64,000 nt of DNA from Escherichia coli O157:H7 (GTDB lineage: Bacteria; Pseudomonadota; Gammaproteobacteria; Enterobacterales; Enterobacteriaceae): NCBI RefSeq assembly GCF_013167455.1, contig NZ_CP038328.1. One strand, written 5' to 3'. The notes under the pieces are model-generated. The model worked only from the letters and a program-made list of their open reading frames with translations. It made no database searches and was not told where the DNA came from. Numbering within the stretch: position 1 is the stretch's first letter; each line of letters opens with the position of its first letter. The translations under genes were made by a program, and so were the position numbers. Shown here one piece after another: positions 3,977 through 21,988 of the stretch.

Positions 3977-4045
3977 TAGGCCGGAGTAGGTCGGATAAGA
4001 CGCGCCAGCGTCGCATCCGACGTTACGCGCCAATGCGGCCTCCGG
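3977..4045. repeat. REP-like element downstream of fabB
   Basis: gtaggccggagtaggtcggataagacgcgccagcgtcgcatccgac, a REP-family motif. Confidence 0.6.
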
Positions 4046-4054
4046 CACTAACGC

Positions 4055-4082
4055 AAAAGGGAACCTGATGGTTCCCTTTTTC
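4055..4082 (+). terminator. Rho-independent terminator of fabB
   Basis: agggaacc-tgat-ggttccct stem-loop followed by ttttt. Confidence 0.8.
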
Positions 4083-4240
4083 ACATCATTGACAATCGCC
4101 GCCAGTTCCAGGCAAACTCCCCGCTTTGTCGATTTCCTTCTGAAAAGACGTACGCGTTAAATCCTGCCAACGCACTGTAACCCTGAAACCAGAGAGATGA
4201 GACGGGGATACTCCTCGCCTTGCGCTGCATTCTGGAGTAA

Positions 4241-6414
<2,174 letters not shown>

Positions 6415-6512
6415 TACGTATCCTTATACCTGAAATCTTCGCAAGTATGCCTGGCCGCGAGATTATGGCACACTTGTCCGGTTAACTCTCGTCTCATACA
6501 GGTAACACAAAC

Positions 6513-7649
6513 GTGAAAATCCTTGTTGATGAAAATATGCCTTATGCCCGCGACTTATTTAGCCGTTTGGGTGAGGTGATCGCGGTTCCCGGGCGTCCAA
6601 TCCCCGTCGCTCAACTGGCAGACGCGGATGCGCTGATGGTGCGTTCGGTCACGAAAGTGAATGAATCTTTGCTGGCAGGAAAACCCATTAAATTTGTTGG
6701 CACTGCCACTGCGGGGACCGACCATGTCGATGAAGCATGGTTGAAGCAGGCGGGAATTGGTTTTTCCGCTGCACCTGGCTGTAATGCGATTGCGGTGGTG
6801 GAATATGTTTTCTCCTCCCTGCTGATGCTTGCCGAACGCGATGGATTTTCACTGCACGAGCGTACCGTGGGGATCGTAGGCGTTGGTAACGTTGGTCGGC
6901 GTTTACAGGCACGACTGGAAGCGTTAGGGATTAAAACCTTACTTTGCGATCCGCCTCGCGCCGACTGTGGGGATGAGGGTGATTTCCGCTCGCTGGATGA
7001 GTTAGTCCAGCGCGCGGATATTCTGACTTTCCATACGCCACTCTTCAAAGACGGGCCGTACAAAACGCTGCATCTGGCGGATGAAAAACTGATCCGTAGC
7101 CTGAAGCCCGGAGCGATTCTGATTAACGCCTGCCGTGGCGCAGTCGTCGATAATACCGCGCTGCTGACCTGCCTGAATGAAGGCCAGAAGTTAAGCGTAG
7201 TGCTGGATGTCTGGGAAGGCGAACCGGAACTAAATGTGGAATTGCTGACAAAAGTGGATATCGGCACGCCGCATATTGCAGGCTATACCCTGGAAGGTAA
7301 AGCACGCGGTACTACGCAAGTGTTTGAAGCCTATAGCAAGTTTATTGGGCATGAACAGCACGTTGCGCTGGATACATTACTGCCTGCGCCAGAGTTTGGT
7401 CGCATTACTCTGCATGGACCGCTCGATCAACCGACGCTGAAAAGGCTGGTGCATTTGGTGTATGATGTGCGCCGCGATGACGCACCGCTGCGTAAAGTCG
7501 CCGGGATACCGGGTGAGTTCGATAAACTGCGCAAAAACTATCTTGAGCGCCGTGAATGGTCATCTCTGTATGTAATTTGTGATGACGCCAGTGCGGCATC
7601 ATTGCTGTGTAAACTGGGTTTTAACGCCGTTCATCATCCGGCACGTTAA
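6513..7649 (+). CDS. pdxB: Erythronate-4-phosphate dehydrogenase
   Basis: 378 aa; D-2-hydroxyacid dehydrogenase NAD-binding motif [12 protein letters not shown]. Confidence 0.95.
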
Positions 7650-16010: not shown

Positions 16011-16580
16011 ATGAAACGACTTATTGTGGGCATCAGCGGTGCCAGCGGCGCGATTTATGGTGTGCGCTTATTACAGGTTCTGCGCGATGTCACAGATATC
16101 GAAACGCATCTGGTAATGAGCCAGGCGGCGCGCCAGACCTTATCCCTCGAAACGGATTTTTCCCTGCGCGAAGTGCAGGCATTAGCTGATGTCACGCATG
16201 ATGCGCGCGATATTGCCGCCAGCATCTCTTCCGGTTCTTTCCAGACACTGGGGATGGTGATTTTACCCTGTTCAATCAAAACCCTGTCCGGCATTGTCCA
16301 TAGCTATACTGATGGCTTACTGACCCGTGCGGCAGATGTGGTGCTGAAAGAGCGTCGCCCACTGGTGCTCTGCGTGCGTGAAACACCATTGCACTTAGGC
16401 CATCTGCGTTTAATGACGCAGGCAGCAGAAATCGGTGCGGTGATTATGCCTCCCGTTCCGGCGTTTTATCATCGCCCGCAATCCCTTGATGATGTGATAA
16501 ATCAGACGGTTAATCGTGTTCTTGACCAGTTTGCGATAACCCTTCCTGAAGATCTCTTTGCCCGCTGGCAGGGCGCATAA
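16011..16580 (+). CDS. ubiX: Flavin prenyltransferase UbiX
   Basis: 189 aa; flavoprotein fold with N-terminal GISGASGAIYG. Confidence 0.95.
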   Translation: MKRLIVGISGASGAIYGVRLLQVLRDVTDIETHLVMSQAARQTLSLETDFSLREVQALADVTHDARDIAASISSGSFQTLGMVILPCSIKTLSGIVHSYTDGLLTRAADVVLKERRPLVLCVRETPLHLGHLRLMTQAAEIGAVIMPPVPAFYHRPQSLDDVINQTVNRVLDQFAITLPEDLFARWQGA

Positions 16581-16588
16581 CTCCGCTG

Positions 16589-16613
16589 TTGCCCTGTTTC
16601 AGGGCAATTTTGC
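16589..16613 (+). terminator. Intrinsic terminator after ubiX
   Basis: ttgccctg-tttc-agggcaa followed by ttttg. Confidence 0.7.
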
Positions 16614-16761
16614 AACCGCGATCAAATCCTCGACATTTTGTTTCTGCCATTCAATCGAAACGCTGCGATTCAACCGCTATACCTGCTATCTTCAACTTTA
16701 GGACAATAATGCAACGTCTTATTAACATATTTAACGTTGAATGTTACTGTTGTCGTCAAGA

Positions 16762-16777
16762 TGGCATAAGACCTGCA
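16762..16777 (+). promoter_or_regulatory. Sigma-54 (-24/-12) promoter upstream of argT
   Basis: tGGcataagacctGCat fits the GG-N10-GC spacing; about 70 bp upstream of the argT ATG. Confidence 0.7.
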
Positions 16778-16845
16778 TGAACAAGCCTGCAAACACACAA
16801 CACAATACACAACATAAAAAAGCCATTTTCACTTGAGGGTTATGT

Positions 16846-17628
16846 ATGAAGAAGTCGATTCTCGCTCTGTCTTTGTTAGTCGGTATTTCCGCAGCGGCTT
16901 CCAGCTATGCGGCATTGCCGGAGACGGTACGTATCGGAACCGATACCACCTATGCACCGTTCTCGTCGAAAGATGCCAAAGGTGACTTTGTCGGCTTTGA
17001 TATCGATCTCGGTAACGAGATGTGCAAACGGATGCAGGTGAAATGTACCTGGGTTGCCAGTGACTTTGACGCGCTGATCCCCTCACTGAAAGCGAAAAAA
17101 ATCGACGCCATTATTTCGTCGCTTTCCATTACCGATAAACGTCAGCAGGAGATTGCCTTCTCCGACAAGCTGTACGCCGCAGATTCCCGTCTGATTGCCG
17201 CCAAAGGTTCGCCGATTCAGCCAACGCTGGACTCACTGAAAGGTAAACATGTTGGTGTGCTGCAGGGATCAACCCAGGAAGCTTACGCTAACGAGACCTG
17301 GCGTAGCAAAGGTGTGGATGTGGTGGCCTATGCCAACCAGGATTTGGTCTATTCCGATCTGGCTGCAGGACGTCTGGATGCTGCACTGCAGGATGAAGTT
17401 GCTGCCAGCGAAGGATTCCTCAAGCAACCTGCTGGTAAAGATTTCGCCTTTGCTGGCTCATCAGTAAAAGACAAAAAATACTTCGGTGATGGCACCGGTG
17501 TAGGGCTACGTAAAGATGATGCTGAACTGACGGCTGCCTTCAATAAGGCGCTTGGCGAGCTGCGTCAGGACGGCACCTACGACAAGATGGCGAAAAAGTA
17601 TTTTGACTTTAATGTCTACGGTGACTGA
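16846..17628 (+). CDS. argT: Lysine/arginine/ornithine-binding periplasmic protein
   Basis: 260 aa with signal peptide; close paralog of the adjacent hisJ. Confidence 0.95.
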
Positions 17629-17848
17629 TACGTCGCAGGGAAGCTGTACCTGATGGAATGATCATCATGGTGCACGCCAGGTTTGTTGCACTATCGTGGT
17701 GCATTGAAATGCATACTTAAGCATTTTTAATGAAAAATAATACGTCTAACGGGGCGGGATATTTTGCCTTGATGGTCAATTTTATGGCACGATAAGTGTA
17801 ACAAACCTGTAAATATTCCCTATAAAAAGACTGTCAGTTGAGGACATT

Positions 17849-18631
17849 ATGAAAAAACTGGTGCTATCGCTCTCTCTGGTTCTGGCCTTCTCCAGCGCAA
17901 CTGCGGCATTTGCTGCGATTCCGCAAAACATCCGCATCGGTACCGACCCGACCTATGCGCCATTTGAATCAAAAAATTCACAAGGCGAACTGGTTGGCTT
18001 CGATATCGATCTGGCAAAGGAATTATGCAAACGCATCAATACGCAATGTACGTTTGTCGAAAATCCGCTGGATGCGTTAATCCCGTCCTTAAAAGCGAAG
18101 AAGATTGACGCCATCATGTCATCGCTTTCCATTACGGAAAAACGTCAGCAAGAAATAGCCTTCACCGACAAACTGTACGCTGCCGATTCTCGTCTGGTGG
18201 TGGCGAAAAATTCTGACATTCAGCCGACAGTCGAGTCGCTGAAAGGCAAACGGGTAGGCGTATTGCAGGGCACTACCCAGGAGACGTTCGGTAATGAACA
18301 TTGGGCACCAAAAGGCATTGAAATCGTCTCGTATCAGGGGCAGGACAACATTTATTCTGACCTGACTGCCGGACGTATTGATGCCGCGTTCCAGGATGAG
18401 GTCGCTGCCAGCGAAGGTTTCCTCAAACAACCTGTCGGTAAAGATTACAAATTCGGTGGCCCGTCTGTTAAAGATGAAAAACTGTTTGGCGTAGGGACCG
18501 GCATGGGCCTGCGTAAAGAAGATAACGAACTGCGCGAGGCACTGAACAAAGCCTTTGCCGAAATGCGCGCTGACGGTACTTACGAGAAATTAGCGAAAAA
18601 GTACTTCGATTTTGATGTTTATGGTGGTTAA
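17849..18631 (+). CDS. hisJ: Histidine-binding periplasmic protein
   Basis: 260 aa, signal peptide [22 protein letters not shown]; followed by hisQMP. Confidence 0.95.
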
Positions 18632-18655
18632 TCGCCATCGGTGAAAGAAAGCCCG

Positions 18656-18679
18656 CTCCCTTCGGGTAACCGGAGGGAG
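18656..18679 (+). other. hisJ-hisQ intercistronic stem-loop
   Basis: ctcccttcgg-gtaa-ccggagggag (one G-U pair), no U-tract. Confidence 0.6.
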
Positions 18680-18720
18680 ACAAGAGGCGGTAATTCACCA
18701 CACACGACAGGACAGGCAGC

Positions 18721-19407
18721 ATGTTGTATGGGTTTTCAGGTGTTATTTTACAGGGTGCGCTCGTCACGCTGGAGCTGGCTATCAGCTCTGTAGTGCTCGC
18801 TGTAATCATCGGTTTAATTGGCGCTGGCGGTAAGCTCTCGCAAAATCGGCTTTCGGGGCTGATTTTCGAAGGGTACACCACGCTGATTCGTGGCGTGCCG
18901 GACTTAGTGTTGATGCTGCTGATTTTCTACGGTTTGCAGATTGCGCTAAACACGGTGACGGAGGCGATGGGCGTCGGGCAGATTGATATCGATCCGATGG
19001 TCGCTGGTATTATCACTCTCGGTTTTATCTACGGTGCTTATTTTACCGAAACGTTCCGTGGTGCTTTTATGGCAGTGCCGAAAGGACATATAGAGGCGGC
19101 GAGGGCGTTCGGTTTTACTCGTGGGCAAGTGTTTCGGCGGATCATGTTTCCGGCGATGATGCGTTACGCCCTGCCAGGCATTGGCAACAACTGGCAGGTG
19201 ATCCTCAAATCTACCGCACTGGTTTCGTTACTCGGCCTGGAAGATGTGGTCAAAGCCACGCAGCTGGCAGGCAAAAGTACCTGGGAACCGTTCTATTTCG
19301 CTATCGTCTGTGGCGTGATTTACCTGGTTTTCACCACCGTTTCCAATGGTGTGCTGCTGTTCCTTGAGCGCCGCTACTCTGTGGGTGTGAAGAGGGCTGA
19401 CCTGTGA
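18721..19407 (+). CDS. hisQ: Histidine ABC transporter permease HisQ
   Basis: 228 aa, multi-TM permease. Confidence 0.95.
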   Translation: MLYGFSGVILQGALVTLELAISSVVLAVIIGLIGAGGKLSQNRLSGLIFEGYTTLIRGVPDLVLMLLIFYGLQIALNTVTEAMGVGQIDIDPMVAGIITLGFIYGAYFTETFRGAFMAVPKGHIEAARAFGFTRGQVFRRIMFPAMMRYALPGIGNNWQVILKSTALVSLLGLEDVVKATQLAGKSTWEPFYFAIVCGVIYLVFTTVSNGVLLFLERRYSVGVKRADL

Positions 19408-20120
19408 TCGAAATCTTACATGAATACTGGAAACCGCTGCTGTGGACCGACGGTTATCGCTTTACTGGTGTGGCGATCACTCTGTGGCTGCTTATTTTGT
19501 CGGTAGTGATAGGCGGAGTCCTGGCGCTGTTTCTGGCGATTGGTCGTGTCTCCAGTAATAAATACATCCAGTTTCCAATCTGGTTATTTACCTATATTTT
19601 TCGCGGTACGCCGCTGTATGTTCAGTTGCTGGTGTTCTATTCCGGCATGTATACGCTGGAGATTGTTAAGGGGACCGAGTTTCTTAACGCCTTTTTCCGC
19701 AGTGGCCTGAACTGTACCGTGCTGGCGCTGACGCTTAACACCTGCGCTTACACTACCGAGATTTTTGCTGGGGCAATCCGTTCGGTGCCGCATGGGGAAA
19801 TTGAAGCCGCCAGAGCCTATGGCTTCTCGACTTTTAAAATGTATCGCTGCATTATTTTGCCTTCTGCGCTGCGTATTGCGTTACCGGCATACAGCAACGA
19901 AGTGATCCTGATGCTGCACTCTACTGCGTTGGCATTTACTGCCACGGTGCCGGATCTGCTGAAAATAGCCCGCGATATTAACGCCGCCACGTATCAACCT
20001 TTTACCGCCTTCGGCATTGCCGCGGTGCTCTATTTAATCATCTCTTATGTCCTGATCAGCCTCTTTCGCAGAGCGGAAAAACGCTGGTTGCAGCATGTGA
20101 AACCTTCTTCAACGCACTGA
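19404..20120 (+). CDS. hisM: Histidine ABC transporter permease HisM
   Basis: 238 aa; overlaps hisQ stop by 4 bp. Confidence 0.95.
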
Positions 20121-20127
20121 GAATACG

Positions 20128-20901
20128 ATGTCCGAGAATAAATTAAACGTTATCGATTTGCACAAACGCTATGGCGAACACGAAGTGCTGAAAGGGGTGT
20201 CACTGCAAGCGAATGCCGGAGATGTAATAAGCATCATCGGATCGTCGGGATCGGGGAAAAGTACCTTTCTGCGCTGCATTAACTTCCTCGAAAAACCGAG
20301 TGAAGGGTCGATCGTGGTCAATGGCCAGACGATCAATCTGGTGCGCGACAAAGACGGTCAACTCAAAGTCGCCGATAAAAATCAACTGCGCTTACTGCGC
20401 ACACGCCTGACGATGGTATTCCAGCACTTCAATCTCTGGAGCCATATGACGGTGCTGGAAAACGTCATGGAAGCGCCGATTCAGGTGTTGGGCCTGAGCA
20501 AGCAGGAAGCGCGCGAGCGGGCGGTGAAGTATCTGGCAAAAGTCGGGATAGACGAACGTGCGCAGGGGAAATACCCGGTGCACCTGTCCGGTGGTCAGCA
20601 ACAGCGTGTTTCCATAGCGCGGGCGCTGGCAATGGAACCGGAAGTTCTGTTGTTTGATGAACCGACATCGGCCCTTGACCCAGAGCTGGTGGGTGAAGTG
20701 CTGCGCATTATGCAGCAGCTGGCGGAAGAGGGAAAAACGATGGTGGTGGTGACCCACGAAATGGGCTTTGCTCGCCATGTATCTACTCACGTCATTTTCC
20801 TCCATCAGGGGAAAATAGAGGAAGAAGGCGCGCCGGAGCAGTTATTTGGCAACCCGCAAAGCCCTCGTCTGCAACAGTTCCTTAAAGGTTCGCTGAAATA
20901 A
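20128..20901 (+). CDS. hisP: Histidine ABC transporter ATP-binding protein HisP
   Basis: 257 aa; Walker [13 protein letters not shown] signature LSGGQQQRV, Walker [12 protein letters not shown]. Confidence 0.97.
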
Positions 20902-20907
20902 TTGCCT

Positions 20908-20937
20908 CTCCGGTGGCTAACGCTGCCGGAGTATTTT
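20908..20937 (+). terminator. Intrinsic terminator after hisP
   Basis: ctccgg...ccggag stem followed by tatttt. Confidence 0.65.
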
Positions 20938-21097
20938 CAAGGGGAATTTGCGAGTCAGCTTCCGCTGAAATGTAAAAGTTGCAGTCCGCTAAAAATACTT
21001 CTGAATTCGCTGTCCAAAGATAAAAACTGCCTGCTGCATTGGGTGTTAATCGTGGTTATTGTCGCGTCATCTTAAATTTGAGGGGTGACGGAACGCC

Positions 21098-21988
21098 ATG
21101 ACAATATCGACAACTTCCACGCCGCATGATGCGGTATTTAAATCTTTTTTACGCCATCCAGACACCGCGCGGGATTTTATTGATATTCATCTTCCCGCGC
21201 CGCTGCGCAAACTGTGTGATTTAACGACGCTTAAACTGGAACCAAACAGTTTTATTGATGAAGACCTGCGGCAATATTATTCCGACCTCTTGTGGTCTGT
21301 GAAAACGCAGGAGGGAGTGGGTTATCTTTATGTAGTGATAGAGCACCAAAGTAAGCCGGAAGAATTAATGGCTTTTCGCATGATGCGTTATTCCATTGCG
21401 GCAATGCAAAACCATCTTGATGTGGGCTATAAAGAGCTTCCATTGGTGATCCCGATGCTGTTTTATCATGGTTGCAGAAGTCCTTATCCTTATTCACTCT
21501 GCTGGCTTGATGAATTTGCCGAGCCTGCGATTGCCCGTAAAATATATTCATCGGCTTTTCCGTTGGTGGATATTACCGTGGTGCCGGATGACGAGATTAT
21601 GCAACATCGTAAAATGGCGCTGTTGGAGTTAATTCAGAAACATATTCGTCAGCGCGATCTGTTGGGATTAGTCGACCAAATTGTTTCGCTGCTAGTTACA
21701 GGGAACACTAATGACAGACAGCTAAAAGCCCTGTTTAATTATGTATTACAAACGGGAGATGCCCAGCGTTTCCGTGCATTTATTGGTGAGATAACAGAAC
21801 GCGCACCACAAGAAAAGGAGAAACTGATGACCATTGCTGACAGATTACGTGAAGAAGGCGCAATGCAGGGCAAACACGAAGAAGCTCTGCGTATTGCTCA
21901 GGAGATGCTGGAAAAAGGATTTGACCACGAAGTCATCCTGACGCTGACCCGACTTTCACCAGACGATCTTATCGCGCAAAGCCACTAA
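21098..21988 (+). CDS. rpnB: Recombination-promoting nuclease RpnB (Rpn/YhgA-like, transposase_31 PD-(D/E)XK family)
   Basis: 296 aa; N-terminal HDAVFKSFL typical of Rpn/YhgA-like proteins; visibly AT-rich coding sequence. Confidence 0.85.

Follow-up and report, generated by a model that had tools for sequence, protein, structure and literature searches.

The window analysed here is a stretch of 64,000 nucleotides of Escherichia coli O157:H7 DNA, and it contains, both on the plus strand, two neighboring genes for periplasmic binding proteins: argT (16846..17628), which codes for the lysine/arginine/ornithine-binding protein LAO-BP, and hisJ (17849..18631), which codes for the histidine-binding protein. 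Each product is 260 aa long, of which the first 22 form the signal peptide; the spacer between the genes is 220 bp and the distance from ATG to ATG is 1003 bp. E. coli O157:H7 chromosomes with an argT-hisJQMP annotation match the region at 100% identity, and the pair belongs to the core genome: of 5426 complete E. coli genomes, 5424 carry it. The argT product passes the NCBIfam ArgT equivalog NF011586 (582.3 bits, cut-off 440) and stays below the cut-off of the HisJ model (424.7 against 459); conversely, the hisJ product passes the HisJ equivalog NF011965 (599.4 bits, cut-off 459) and stays below that of ArgT (434.7 against 440). Both signal peptides consist of MKK, a hydrophobic core and S-Y-A/A or A-F-A/A, with the Ala-X-Ala type of cleavage typical of Sec signals. 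The SBP_bac_3 class (PF00497), which comprises the binding proteins of polar-amino-acid ABC importers, is defined by such an N-terminal Sec signal peptide and, after it, a bilobed domain some 238 aa long, and this assignment is precomputed for homologues of ArgT and HisJ. Searches with ArgT retrieved the PDB chains of LAO-BP (5owf/1laf, E 1e-147), whose mature chains begin at residue 23, and those of HisJ (1hpb/1hsl, E 2e-110).

The two proteins align by BLASTP with 164/236 identities (69%), 84% positives, no gaps and an E value of 1e-129; ungapped across all 260 codons, 175 residues are identical (67%). The genes lie next to each other on one strand, with equal length, full-length homology and no gene in between, as is the case for a local duplication. 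Indeed, the preliminary description had read the two ORFs as argT and hisJ, tandem paralogs arisen by duplication; their coordinates, their names and the paralogy all hold, and the identity is far from background. Among the shared motifs quoted there, three occur in both proteins, while IRIGTD does not, its first residue being V in ArgT (VRIGTD).

A single set of permease genes lies downstream of the two binding-protein genes, also on the plus strand: hisQ (18721..19407), for a membrane subunit of the ABC importer (NCBIfam HisQ, 478 bits, cut-off 319); hisM (19404..20120), for a membrane subunit, whose GTG start overlaps the hisQ stop (HisM, 465 bits, cut-off 306); and hisP (20128..20901), for the ATP-binding subunit (HisP equivalog, 578 bits, cut-off 466). 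The RefSeq annotation of K-12 names HisQ, HisM and HisP as subunits of both transporters. Higgins and Ames reportedly described in PNAS, in 1981, the argT-hisJQMP locus, with the LAO-binding protein and the J protein sharing the HisQMP2 permease. That the pair shares the HisQMP transporter is already known, and has been textbook material since then; the paralogy itself is thus a sanity check only, in a locus which was among the first sequenced cases where one ABC transporter serves two binding proteins. According to the literature, the HisQMP2 complex is the docking partner of both ArgT and HisJ (PMC6640053, PMC3102756, PMC3971661). It is classed under TC 3.A.1.3.1, as an ABC importer whose two binding proteins are interchangeable. 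The argT-hisJQMP locus of Salmonella Typhimurium and E. coli, as published, is the same system, with about 70% identity, equal length and a common membrane complex (PMC6640053, PMC3102756).

The gene order ubiX-argT-hisJ-hisQMP is found in 74 Enterobacteriaceae loci, one further locus being cut off after argT. Eight genomes of the sister families Erwiniaceae, Yersiniaceae and Pectobacteriaceae, of which about 10 kb each were considered, have one binding-protein gene after ubiX: in five Erwiniaceae, in Serratia fonticola and in Yersinia ruckeri hisQMP follows directly, and Affinibrenneria has ubiX and one binding-protein gene. This is the same synteny in its unduplicated form, as a local duplication predicts, though these genomes may have a second paralog elsewhere. 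The single-copy proteins belong to the same family and have 260 aa (259 aa in Yersinia); they are 72-78% identical to the ArgT and HisJ clades, compared with 69% between these two clades, and ArgT-like and HisJ-like residues are interleaved in them. As the origin of these genes, a chimera produced by deletion, with the 5′ part of argT and the 3′ part of hisJ, was ruled out by this interleaving and by the HisJ-like N-terminal part. The name that the NCBI pipeline gives to the single-copy gene varies between “HisJ” and “ArgT” from genome to genome; these genes are co-orthologues of both argT and hisJ, hence the flipping of the annotation outside Enterobacteriaceae, and neither name speaks to the substrate.

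Promoters of the NtrC/sigma-54 type follow the pattern TGGCAC-N5-TTGCA, with GG at -24 and GC at -12, and have enhancer sites about 100 bp upstream. The motif scan identified such a core, TGGCATAAGACCTGCA, upstream of argT (16762..16777, plus strand, 84 nt 5′ of the ATG; 9/11), with both the GG and the GC intact. Cores of this type (at least 9/11) are present in 75/75 Enterobacteriaceae loci, mostly at 82-90 nt from the start codon, and the profile of the region upstream of argT also fits the sequence that precedes the single-copy gene of Erwiniaceae (E 2e-11). In agreement with this, argT is reported to be sigma-54/NtrC dependent (PMC6640053), and a gSELEX peak of RpoN lies in the argT-ubiX spacer (PMC8743547).

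The situation is different for hisJ. An NtrC-type palindrome, TGCACTATCGTGGTGCA, is located 162 nt 5′ of its ATG (17687..17703; 13/14 to the consensus in the motif scan), together with a second, weaker site at 17659-17674; 69/74 loci have NtrC-like sites 5′ of hisJ, those taken as examples lying at -162, and the profile of the upstream region displays tandem TGCACC-N-GGTGCA units. In K-12 the NtrC peak presumably covers 131-211 nt upstream of hisJ, a position obtained with older K-12 coordinates and a version offset. This ChIP-seq peak, assigned to hisJQMP, is 23.7-fold, and NtrC binds there in vivo (PMC4066584). The sigma-54-like core found by the scan, TGGCACGATAAGTGTA (17785..17800, plus strand, 64 nt 5′ of the ATG), retains the GG at -24, but the GC at -12 is changed to GT, so that the upstream region of E. 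coli O157:H7 hisJ departs from the sigma-54 pattern, although some 100 bp further 5′ the NtrC palindrome is unaltered. This GC is missing from 4/4 Escherichia loci, and a few other genera have lost it too; elsewhere the hisJ core, TGGCACGATAACTGCA or similar, is found at -63 to -72 with both dinucleotides intact. For E. coli hisJQMP a sigma-70 promoter under weak repression by ArgR is reported (PMC6640053); a scan of 16500-18800 with the sigma-70 consensus gave no sites, and terminator-like matches were at chance level.

A sigma-54 core is therefore common to argT (75/75), to hisJ in most genera and to the single-copy gene, and the core of Buttiauxella hisJ is identical to that of the single-copy gene of [Erwinia] mediterraneensis at 16/16 positions. 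The joint presence of the NtrC-site and sigma-54-core layout in argT, hisJ and the unduplicated gene suggests that the promoter was probably copied along with the binding-protein gene. The nucleotide comparison of the flanks, put forward in the preliminary description as a sign of co-duplication, gave no such indication when those of argT and hisJ were locally aligned within the window, as 218/500 shuffles reached the score upstream and 402/500 downstream. However, in a gap-tolerant global alignment of the two leaders in the window just 13/2000 shuffles did better; plain local alignment had missed the motif- and leader-level similarity that the profiles and the global alignment later revealed. 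Since the upstream similarity is confined to binding-site motifs, the common promoter type could in principle be due to convergence.

In a neighbor-joining tree of sequences from 75 Enterobacteriaceae genomes, ArgT and HisJ fall into two distinct clades (100% bootstrap), and the two genes have been evolving independently. Their nucleotide identity in the window is 67.6%, and amounts to 76%, 86% and 41% at codon positions 1, 2 and 3, respectively, and to 38% at 4-fold sites; judging from the third codon positions, which are near saturation, the duplication is old. In a relative-rate test the two copies showed no overall asymmetry, having changed to about the same extent after they separated. 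HisJ may therefore be called derived only with respect to early changes on its stem and to residue 52.

Residue 52 of the mature protein is presumably a specificity determinant. The presence of Leu52 instead of Phe52 is reportedly, in the crystal-structure papers on the two proteins, the binding-site difference that separates HisJ from LAO-BP, and the HisJ of the window has the former. Leu52 is found in 75/75 sequences of the HisJ clade and never in ArgT or in single-copy genes, and Phe52 in 76/76 ArgT sequences and in all eight single-copy proteins, which are otherwise of mixed ArgT and HisJ character. ArgT retains all the ligand-site residues of LAO-BP, namely Tyr14, Phe52, Ser69/70/72, Arg77, Leu117, Ser120, Thr121, Gln122 and Asp161; of these, Tyr14 and Phe52 stack on the side chain of the ligand (PMC3102756).

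As to the time of the event, in the protein tree the order in which ArgT, HisJ and the single-copy genes diverged is weakly supported, with neighbor-joining bootstrap values of 24% for ArgT with HisJ, 42% for ArgT with Erwiniaceae and 4% for HisJ with Erwiniaceae, and the order of the duplication and of the Erwiniaceae split is not settled by it; the timing consequently follows from the parsimony of synteny, which most likely places the duplication in the stem lineage of Enterobacteriaceae. An older event, preceding the Erwiniaceae split or even earlier, with one copy later lost in Erwiniaceae, Yersiniaceae and Pectobacteriaceae each, would agree with the point-estimate tree, where the Erwiniaceae genes join ArgT at the mentioned 42% and HisJ branches earlier, and with the slightly higher similarity of the single-copy genes to ArgT (about 75%, against about 72% to HisJ) and their common Phe52. 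However, it takes at least three independent losses instead of one gain, the Serratia, Yersinia and Affinibrenneria proteins are equidistant from both clades (74-76%), HisJ-like residues stand among the ArgT-like ones at several diagnostic columns of the single-copy genes, and the long HisJ stem branch can account for its basal position; we consider this older origin unlikely. The age of the duplication would also be underestimated if ongoing gene conversion kept the similarity of the two genes high. Paralogs of the same genome are in fact more alike than those of different genomes, with permutation significance in many windows, and nucleotide identity between argT and hisJ rises to 83-92% in codons 75-105. 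Yet the excess is small (0.0-1.7 points overall, up to +4.8 at position 3) and diffuse along the gene, as genome-specific codon usage predicts; similarity peaks where the protein itself is most conserved, owing to the ligand-binding Ser69/70/72 and Arg77; no identical run in the window is longer than 14 nt, and the two clades are wholly separate. No conversion tracts were detected in the 75 Enterobacteriaceae genomes and such a process was rejected as very improbable.

Similarity alone cannot distinguish a local duplicate from a homologue that was acquired horizontally and inserted beside the resident gene. Nevertheless, neither gene stands out from its neighbors in GC or GC3, the two copies are about equally far from the syntenic single-copy genes of the sister families, argT and hisJ have the same length, orientation and promoter layout, and between them there is no signature of a mobile element, which makes a foreign origin extremely improbable. 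The extent of the duplicated unit was a further point of the preliminary description, which stated that only hisJ retained the downstream permease genes and so implied that hisQMP had once been duplicated together with the binding-protein gene and then lost after argT. This statement could not be upheld. A larger unit of that kind has no specific support, and fits the present gene order only with a complete and perfectly clean additional deletion downstream of argT; however, tblastn of HisQ, HisM and HisP against the 75 argT-hisJ spacers, of 163-327 bp, retrieved no remnant (every E above 0.05, with a very small database), the spacer is occupied by the NtrC sites and the promoter core, and the 1003 bp between the two ATG correspond to one gene plus one promoter region. 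Moreover, the eight sister-family genomes have a single binding-protein gene after ubiX, with hisQMP directly next in seven, and argT is not cut off from a permease, as ArgT and HisJ dock on the same HisQMP2 (PMC6640053, PMC3102756). The chance that the permease genes were ever part of the unit is accordingly close to nil. A single binding-protein gene followed by hisQMP in the sister families, together with the lack of permease remnants, indicates that the copied unit measured about 1 kb and left them out; on the simplest reading, this consisted of promoter and binding-protein gene, and hisQMP was never copied.

Taken together, argT and hisJ would be ancient tandem duplicates of one basic-amino-acid-binding gene, both feeding HisQMP2, which diverged in specificity and regulation, a reading to which we assign a probability of about 0.85. 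The ancestor would have had a single binding-protein gene, alone between ubiX and hisQMP. About 1 kb containing this gene, and probably its NtrC-enhancer/sigma-54 promoter, may then have been duplicated, most likely in the Enterobacteriaceae stem, with the permease genes outside the unit, and the two copies would have evolved independently since. Once exported, each of the two proteins would capture its ligand in the periplasm and pass it on to the one HisQMP2 importer encoded downstream, so that one transporter may have gained two substrate ranges: lysine, arginine and ornithine through ArgT and histidine through HisJ, specificities that are taken from the literature. The divergence in specificity may have included the gain of Leu52 in HisJ in place of an ancestral Phe52. 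As for regulation, argT would have kept the canonical sigma-54/NtrC promoter, while in Escherichia the sigma-54 core of hisJ would have decayed and a promoter controlled by sigma-70 and ArgR would be in use.

A more specific version of this history, to which we give even odds, would confine the pair to Enterobacteriaceae and derive it from a broad-specificity, LAO-like ancestor with Phe52 and NtrC/sigma-54 control, as in Erwinia, Pantoea, Serratia and Yersinia, which was duplicated with its promoter; the copy adjacent to hisQMP would have become a histidine specialist through an early burst of changes (among them Phe52 to Leu and Asp51 to Pro) and would now be losing its sigma-54 core (the GC at -12) in favor of sigma-70/ArgR in Escherichia and a few other genera. 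If true, it would represent a dated, stepwise specialization in ligand and regulation inside one transport operon. The single-copy state of the sister families, the HisJ-only Leu52, the probable co-duplication of the promoter and the patchy decay of the hisJ promoter add a modest evolutionary story to this classic model.

A similar logic is found in the E. coli artJ/artPIQM genes, where the paralogous arginine-binding ArtJ and ArtI, encoded in one cluster, are thought to share ArtQMP2 (PMC6640053). The art genes differ in their order, artI being inside the operon and artJ separate, and in their regulation, which involves sigma-70, ArgR and Lrp instead of sigma-54 and NtrC as at the argT-hisJ locus. 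Furthermore, the ArtI and ArtJ models score ArgT and HisJ at about 178-191 bits, far under their cut-offs of 510-522, and the art proteins thus form a distinct, more distant group of paralogs.

Finally, RNA structures are predicted in the spacers of the locus. An Rfam search of 16400-21100 (E <= 1) gave no match, and a hairpin just 3′ of argT is unremarkable (z -1.35). In the hisJ-hisQ spacer a strong hairpin is predicted at 18651..18688 (plus strand) by folding of the 94-nt stretch 18629-18722, whose minimum free energy is -33.2 kcal/mol (z = -3.86), with 0/200 shuffles as stable. In E. coli this hairpin is not of the REP type, unlike the Salmonella locus and some of those of Citrobacter, which have REP-like elements in this spacer; the Salmonella and E. 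coli loci otherwise show no difference in kind. The REP-like character is one of appearance: a strict REP regular expression had no match in the spacers between the binding-protein gene and hisQ, and in two loci (L024 and L009) the likeness was noted by eye. A stable hairpin in this position is present in 78 loci, including those of single-copy genomes such as the Erwiniaceae, with a variable sequence and a median minimum free energy of -30 kcal/mol over 84 nt.

ArgT (LAO-binding protein, LAO-BP) and HisJ (histidine-binding protein) are encoded on the + strand by argT (ORF 1, 16846-17628) and hisJ (ORF 2, 17849-18631), both of 260 aa and placed exactly as in the preliminary description; hisQ (18721-19407), hisM (19404-20120) and hisP (20128-20901) follow and pass their NCBIfam cut-offs. 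In the same collection, ORF 1 passed the ArgT equivalog alone (582 bits, cut-off 440; HisJ model 425, below 459) and ORF 2 the HisJ equivalog alone (599 bits, cut-off 459; ArgT model 435, below 440). By nucleotide search, 16400-21000 is 100% identical to E. coli O157:H7 chromosomes, annotated there as ubiX, argT, hisJ, hisQ, hisM and hisP, and of 5426 complete E. coli genomes, 5424 contain at least 80% of these 4.6 kb. Megablast against E. coli genomes placed the region at a median of two sites per genome. Structures are solved for LAO-BP (1laf, 2lao, 5owf) and HisJ (1hsl, 1hpb); since their mature chains begin at residue 23, the 22-residue signal peptide is confirmed.

BLASTP aligned the two proteins without gaps over 236 residues, with 69% identity and 84% positives (E 1e-129); identity across all 260 codons is 67%. 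This pairwise alignment, which the preliminary description had proposed as a check, bears out the high similarity and the reading of the genes as duplicates, the resemblance being far beyond chance; the motifs that it listed are also present, except that the first opens with V, not I, in ArgT. The paralogy restates a result published already in 1981, and as such is of low interest; the comparative additions, i.e., single-copy outgroups, the polarity of Leu52, the shared promoter layout and the -12 decay in Escherichia, are modest refinements.

The further claim, of permease genes retained by hisJ alone, has to be turned round. The order ubiX-argT-hisJ-hisQMP occurs in 74 Enterobacteriaceae loci, one more locus ending right after argT, whereas a single periplasmic binding protein (SBP) gene lies between ubiX and hisQMP in five loci of the Erwiniaceae (Pantoea latae, P. 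septica, Erwinia sp. JUb26, E. persicina and [Erwinia] mediterraneensis). Three more distant relatives were taken from the protein search: Serratia fonticola and Yersinia ruckeri have the order cvpA-purF-ubiX-[one SBP]-hisQMP-yfcH, while Affinibrenneria salicis (4032-7367 of the fetched locus) has ubiX-[one SBP]-yfcH-folX, the last two genes lying on the opposite strand; this site lacks hisQMP, so that its SBP is an orphan and the partner permease, if any, is elsewhere. The argT-hisJ spacers of 75 genomes are 163-327 bp long; in none of them did tblastn detect remnants of HisQ, HisM or HisP (all matches E > 0.05, in a tiny database). In the window, the two start codons are 1003 bp apart, i.e., one gene plus one regulatory region. 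The ancestral locus is thus most likely one SBP gene ahead of hisQMP, and the copied unit would have comprised only the SBP gene and, probably, its upstream region, a tandem duplication after which the distal copy alone can adjoin hisQ. Nor is ArgT without a permease: ArgT and HisJ, about 70% identical, both associate with the ABC importer HisQMP2 (PMC6640053; PMC3102756; Higgins & Ames 1981, as cited in PMC3971661), and in the K-12 RefSeq record, HisQ, HisM and HisP are named as subunits of the LAO transporter as well as of the histidine transporter.

Synteny parsimony, weighing a single gain against three or more losses, places the duplication on the Enterobacteriaceae stem. Identity of the single-copy proteins to either clade is 72-78%, compared with 69% between the clades. 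At 19 columns fixed-different between the clades, the Erwiniaceae proteins carry 47 ArgT-like, 33 HisJ-like and 15 other residues, interleaved along the chain, as would be expected of an unduplicated gene; with all eight outgroups, six columns are HisJ-derived, three ArgT-derived and 12 ambiguous. Bootstrap values in the protein tree are low, ArgT grouping with the Erwiniaceae in 42% of replicates, with HisJ in 24%, and HisJ with the Erwiniaceae in 4%; therefore, an older duplication followed by losses in the single-copy lineages is kept as a live rival, favored by the first of these values, but made unlikely by the losses it requires and by the mixed residues. The same interleaving rules out that the single-copy gene is a deletion chimera with an argT-like 5′ and a hisJ-like 3′ part. 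In Erwiniaceae and Yersiniaceae, the single-copy protein is labelled “HisJ” or “ArgT” by the NCBI pipeline, varying by genome, and the differently labelled proteins are 85-92% identical to each other; this fits a co-orthologue of both, and neither name should be taken to indicate the substrate.

The two genes share 67.6% nucleotide identity, with 41% at third codon positions, 38% at four-fold sites of conserved residues, and 14 nt as the longest identical run; synonymous sites are therefore close to saturated. For comparison, genes were mapped in 80 related loci from species-representative genomes. Orthologues are 73-100% (ArgT) and 78-100% (HisJ) identical, ArgT and HisJ are 61-76% identical within or between genomes alike, and neighbour-joining splits them cleanly, with 100% bootstrap each. 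Within a genome, paralogs exceed those from different genomes in similarity by only 0.0-1.7 points (up to 4.8 at third positions), an excess distributed along the gene; since it is explained by shared codon usage, no conversion tracts were seen in this comparison. Similarity between argT and hisJ peaks in codons 75-105, a segment that also has the highest protein conservation and contains the ligand-binding Ser69/70/72 and Arg77.

Whether the promoter was copied too was raised in the preliminary description as a matter of flank alignment. Plain local alignment of the argT and hisJ flanks in the window stayed at shuffle level, while comparative motif and leader similarity pointed to a shared origin. 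A sigma-54 core (TGGCAT-N5-nTGCA) is found upstream of argT in 75/75 loci, mostly 82-90 nt away, and the single-copy Erwiniaceae gene is preceded by a similar one at a distance of 75-89 nt; judged by sequence, these two upstream regions are clearly orthologous (nhmmer E 2e-11). At -63 to -72 from hisJ, many genera carry TGGCACGATAACTGCA or a close variant, and in 69/74 loci hisJ is preceded by NtrC-type palindromes (about -160 in the examples seen). In profile searches of a small database, hisJ upstream regions resembled those of argT and the single-copy gene at two elements only, the NtrC-site cluster and the sigma-54 core (E 4e-5 to 1e-3). Buttiauxella hisJ and the [E.] mediterraneensis single-copy gene share an identical core, down to its spacer. 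Allowing for a CA-rich insertion in the argT leader, only 13 of 2000 shuffles align as well as the window leaders from core to ATG. The promoter was thus probably copied along with the gene, although convergence could also have produced the shared layout of binding sites. The insertion, an imperfect repeat (AACACACAACACAATACACAACA, 16789-16815) with no counterpart in the hisJ leader, makes up most of the roughly 20-nt difference in leader length.

In the window, the argT core (16762-16777) has both GG and GC intact; upstream of hisJ are an NtrC palindrome (TGCACTATCGTGGTGCA, 17687-17703) and a sigma-54-type core (TGGCACGATAAGTGTA, 17785-17800) with a mutated -12 GC. Among the hisJ upstream regions of L001-L079 (homologous loci fetched for comparison), the -24 GG is kept wherever the core is recognisable. 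All 4/4 Escherichia loci have lost the -12 GC, as have, separately, Enterobacter cloacae, Raoultella, Pluralibacter, Phytobacter and Pseudescherichia; Salmonella, Citrobacter, Klebsiella, Kosakonia and Mangrovibacter have an intact core. In E. coli, argT depends on sigma-54/NtrC, and hisJQMP has a sigma-70 promoter on which ArgR acts as a weak repressor (PMC6640053); NtrC ChIP-seq peaks have been assigned to both, strong for hisJQMP and weaker for argT (PMC4066584). In the older K-12 coordinates, with the offset verified in K-12 RefSeq, the hisJQMP peak covers the palindrome, at 131-211 nt upstream of hisJ. The core states in the window agree with this published regulation.

Mature position 52, the binding-site difference between ArgT and HisJ according to the crystal-structure literature, is Phe in 76/76 ArgT and 8/8 single-copy proteins, and Leu in 75/75 HisJ. 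In LAO-BP, the ligand is stacked by Tyr14 and Phe52 (PMC3102756). The HisJ stem branch is longer (0.132 vs 0.066 for ArgT) and its crown shallower; change since the split is about equal, with roughly 25-30 unique substitutions per copy, and Tajima tests were non-significant in 24 of 25 comparisons. We infer an ancestor that would have been LAO-like, with HisJ altered early and then constrained.

Between hisJ and hisQ lies a very stable hairpin (18651-18688; z = -3.9 for the 94-nt stretch 18629-18722), presumably shielding the upstream SBP mRNA and setting a high SBP-to-permease expression ratio, in line with work on REP elements in Salmonella. A strong hairpin, differing in sequence, occupies the SBP-hisQ spacer of every locus examined (L001-L080), single-copy Erwiniaceae included; in the hisJ-hisQ spacers of Salmonella (L024) and Citrobacter portucalensis (L009), the elements are REP-like and longer, at about 180 nt. 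Just downstream of hisP, 21098-21988 encodes a 296-aa protein of the Rpn family (PD-(D/E)XK nuclease/transposase-like), below the equivalog cut-offs (RpnA, 463 < 583; PRK09956, 457 < 583). Among the 80 loci, this gene is present only in three of four Escherichia loci, the fourth ending before the site, and in Citrobacter amalonaticus (63% identity), a distribution that suggests lineage-specific insertion between hisP and yfcH.
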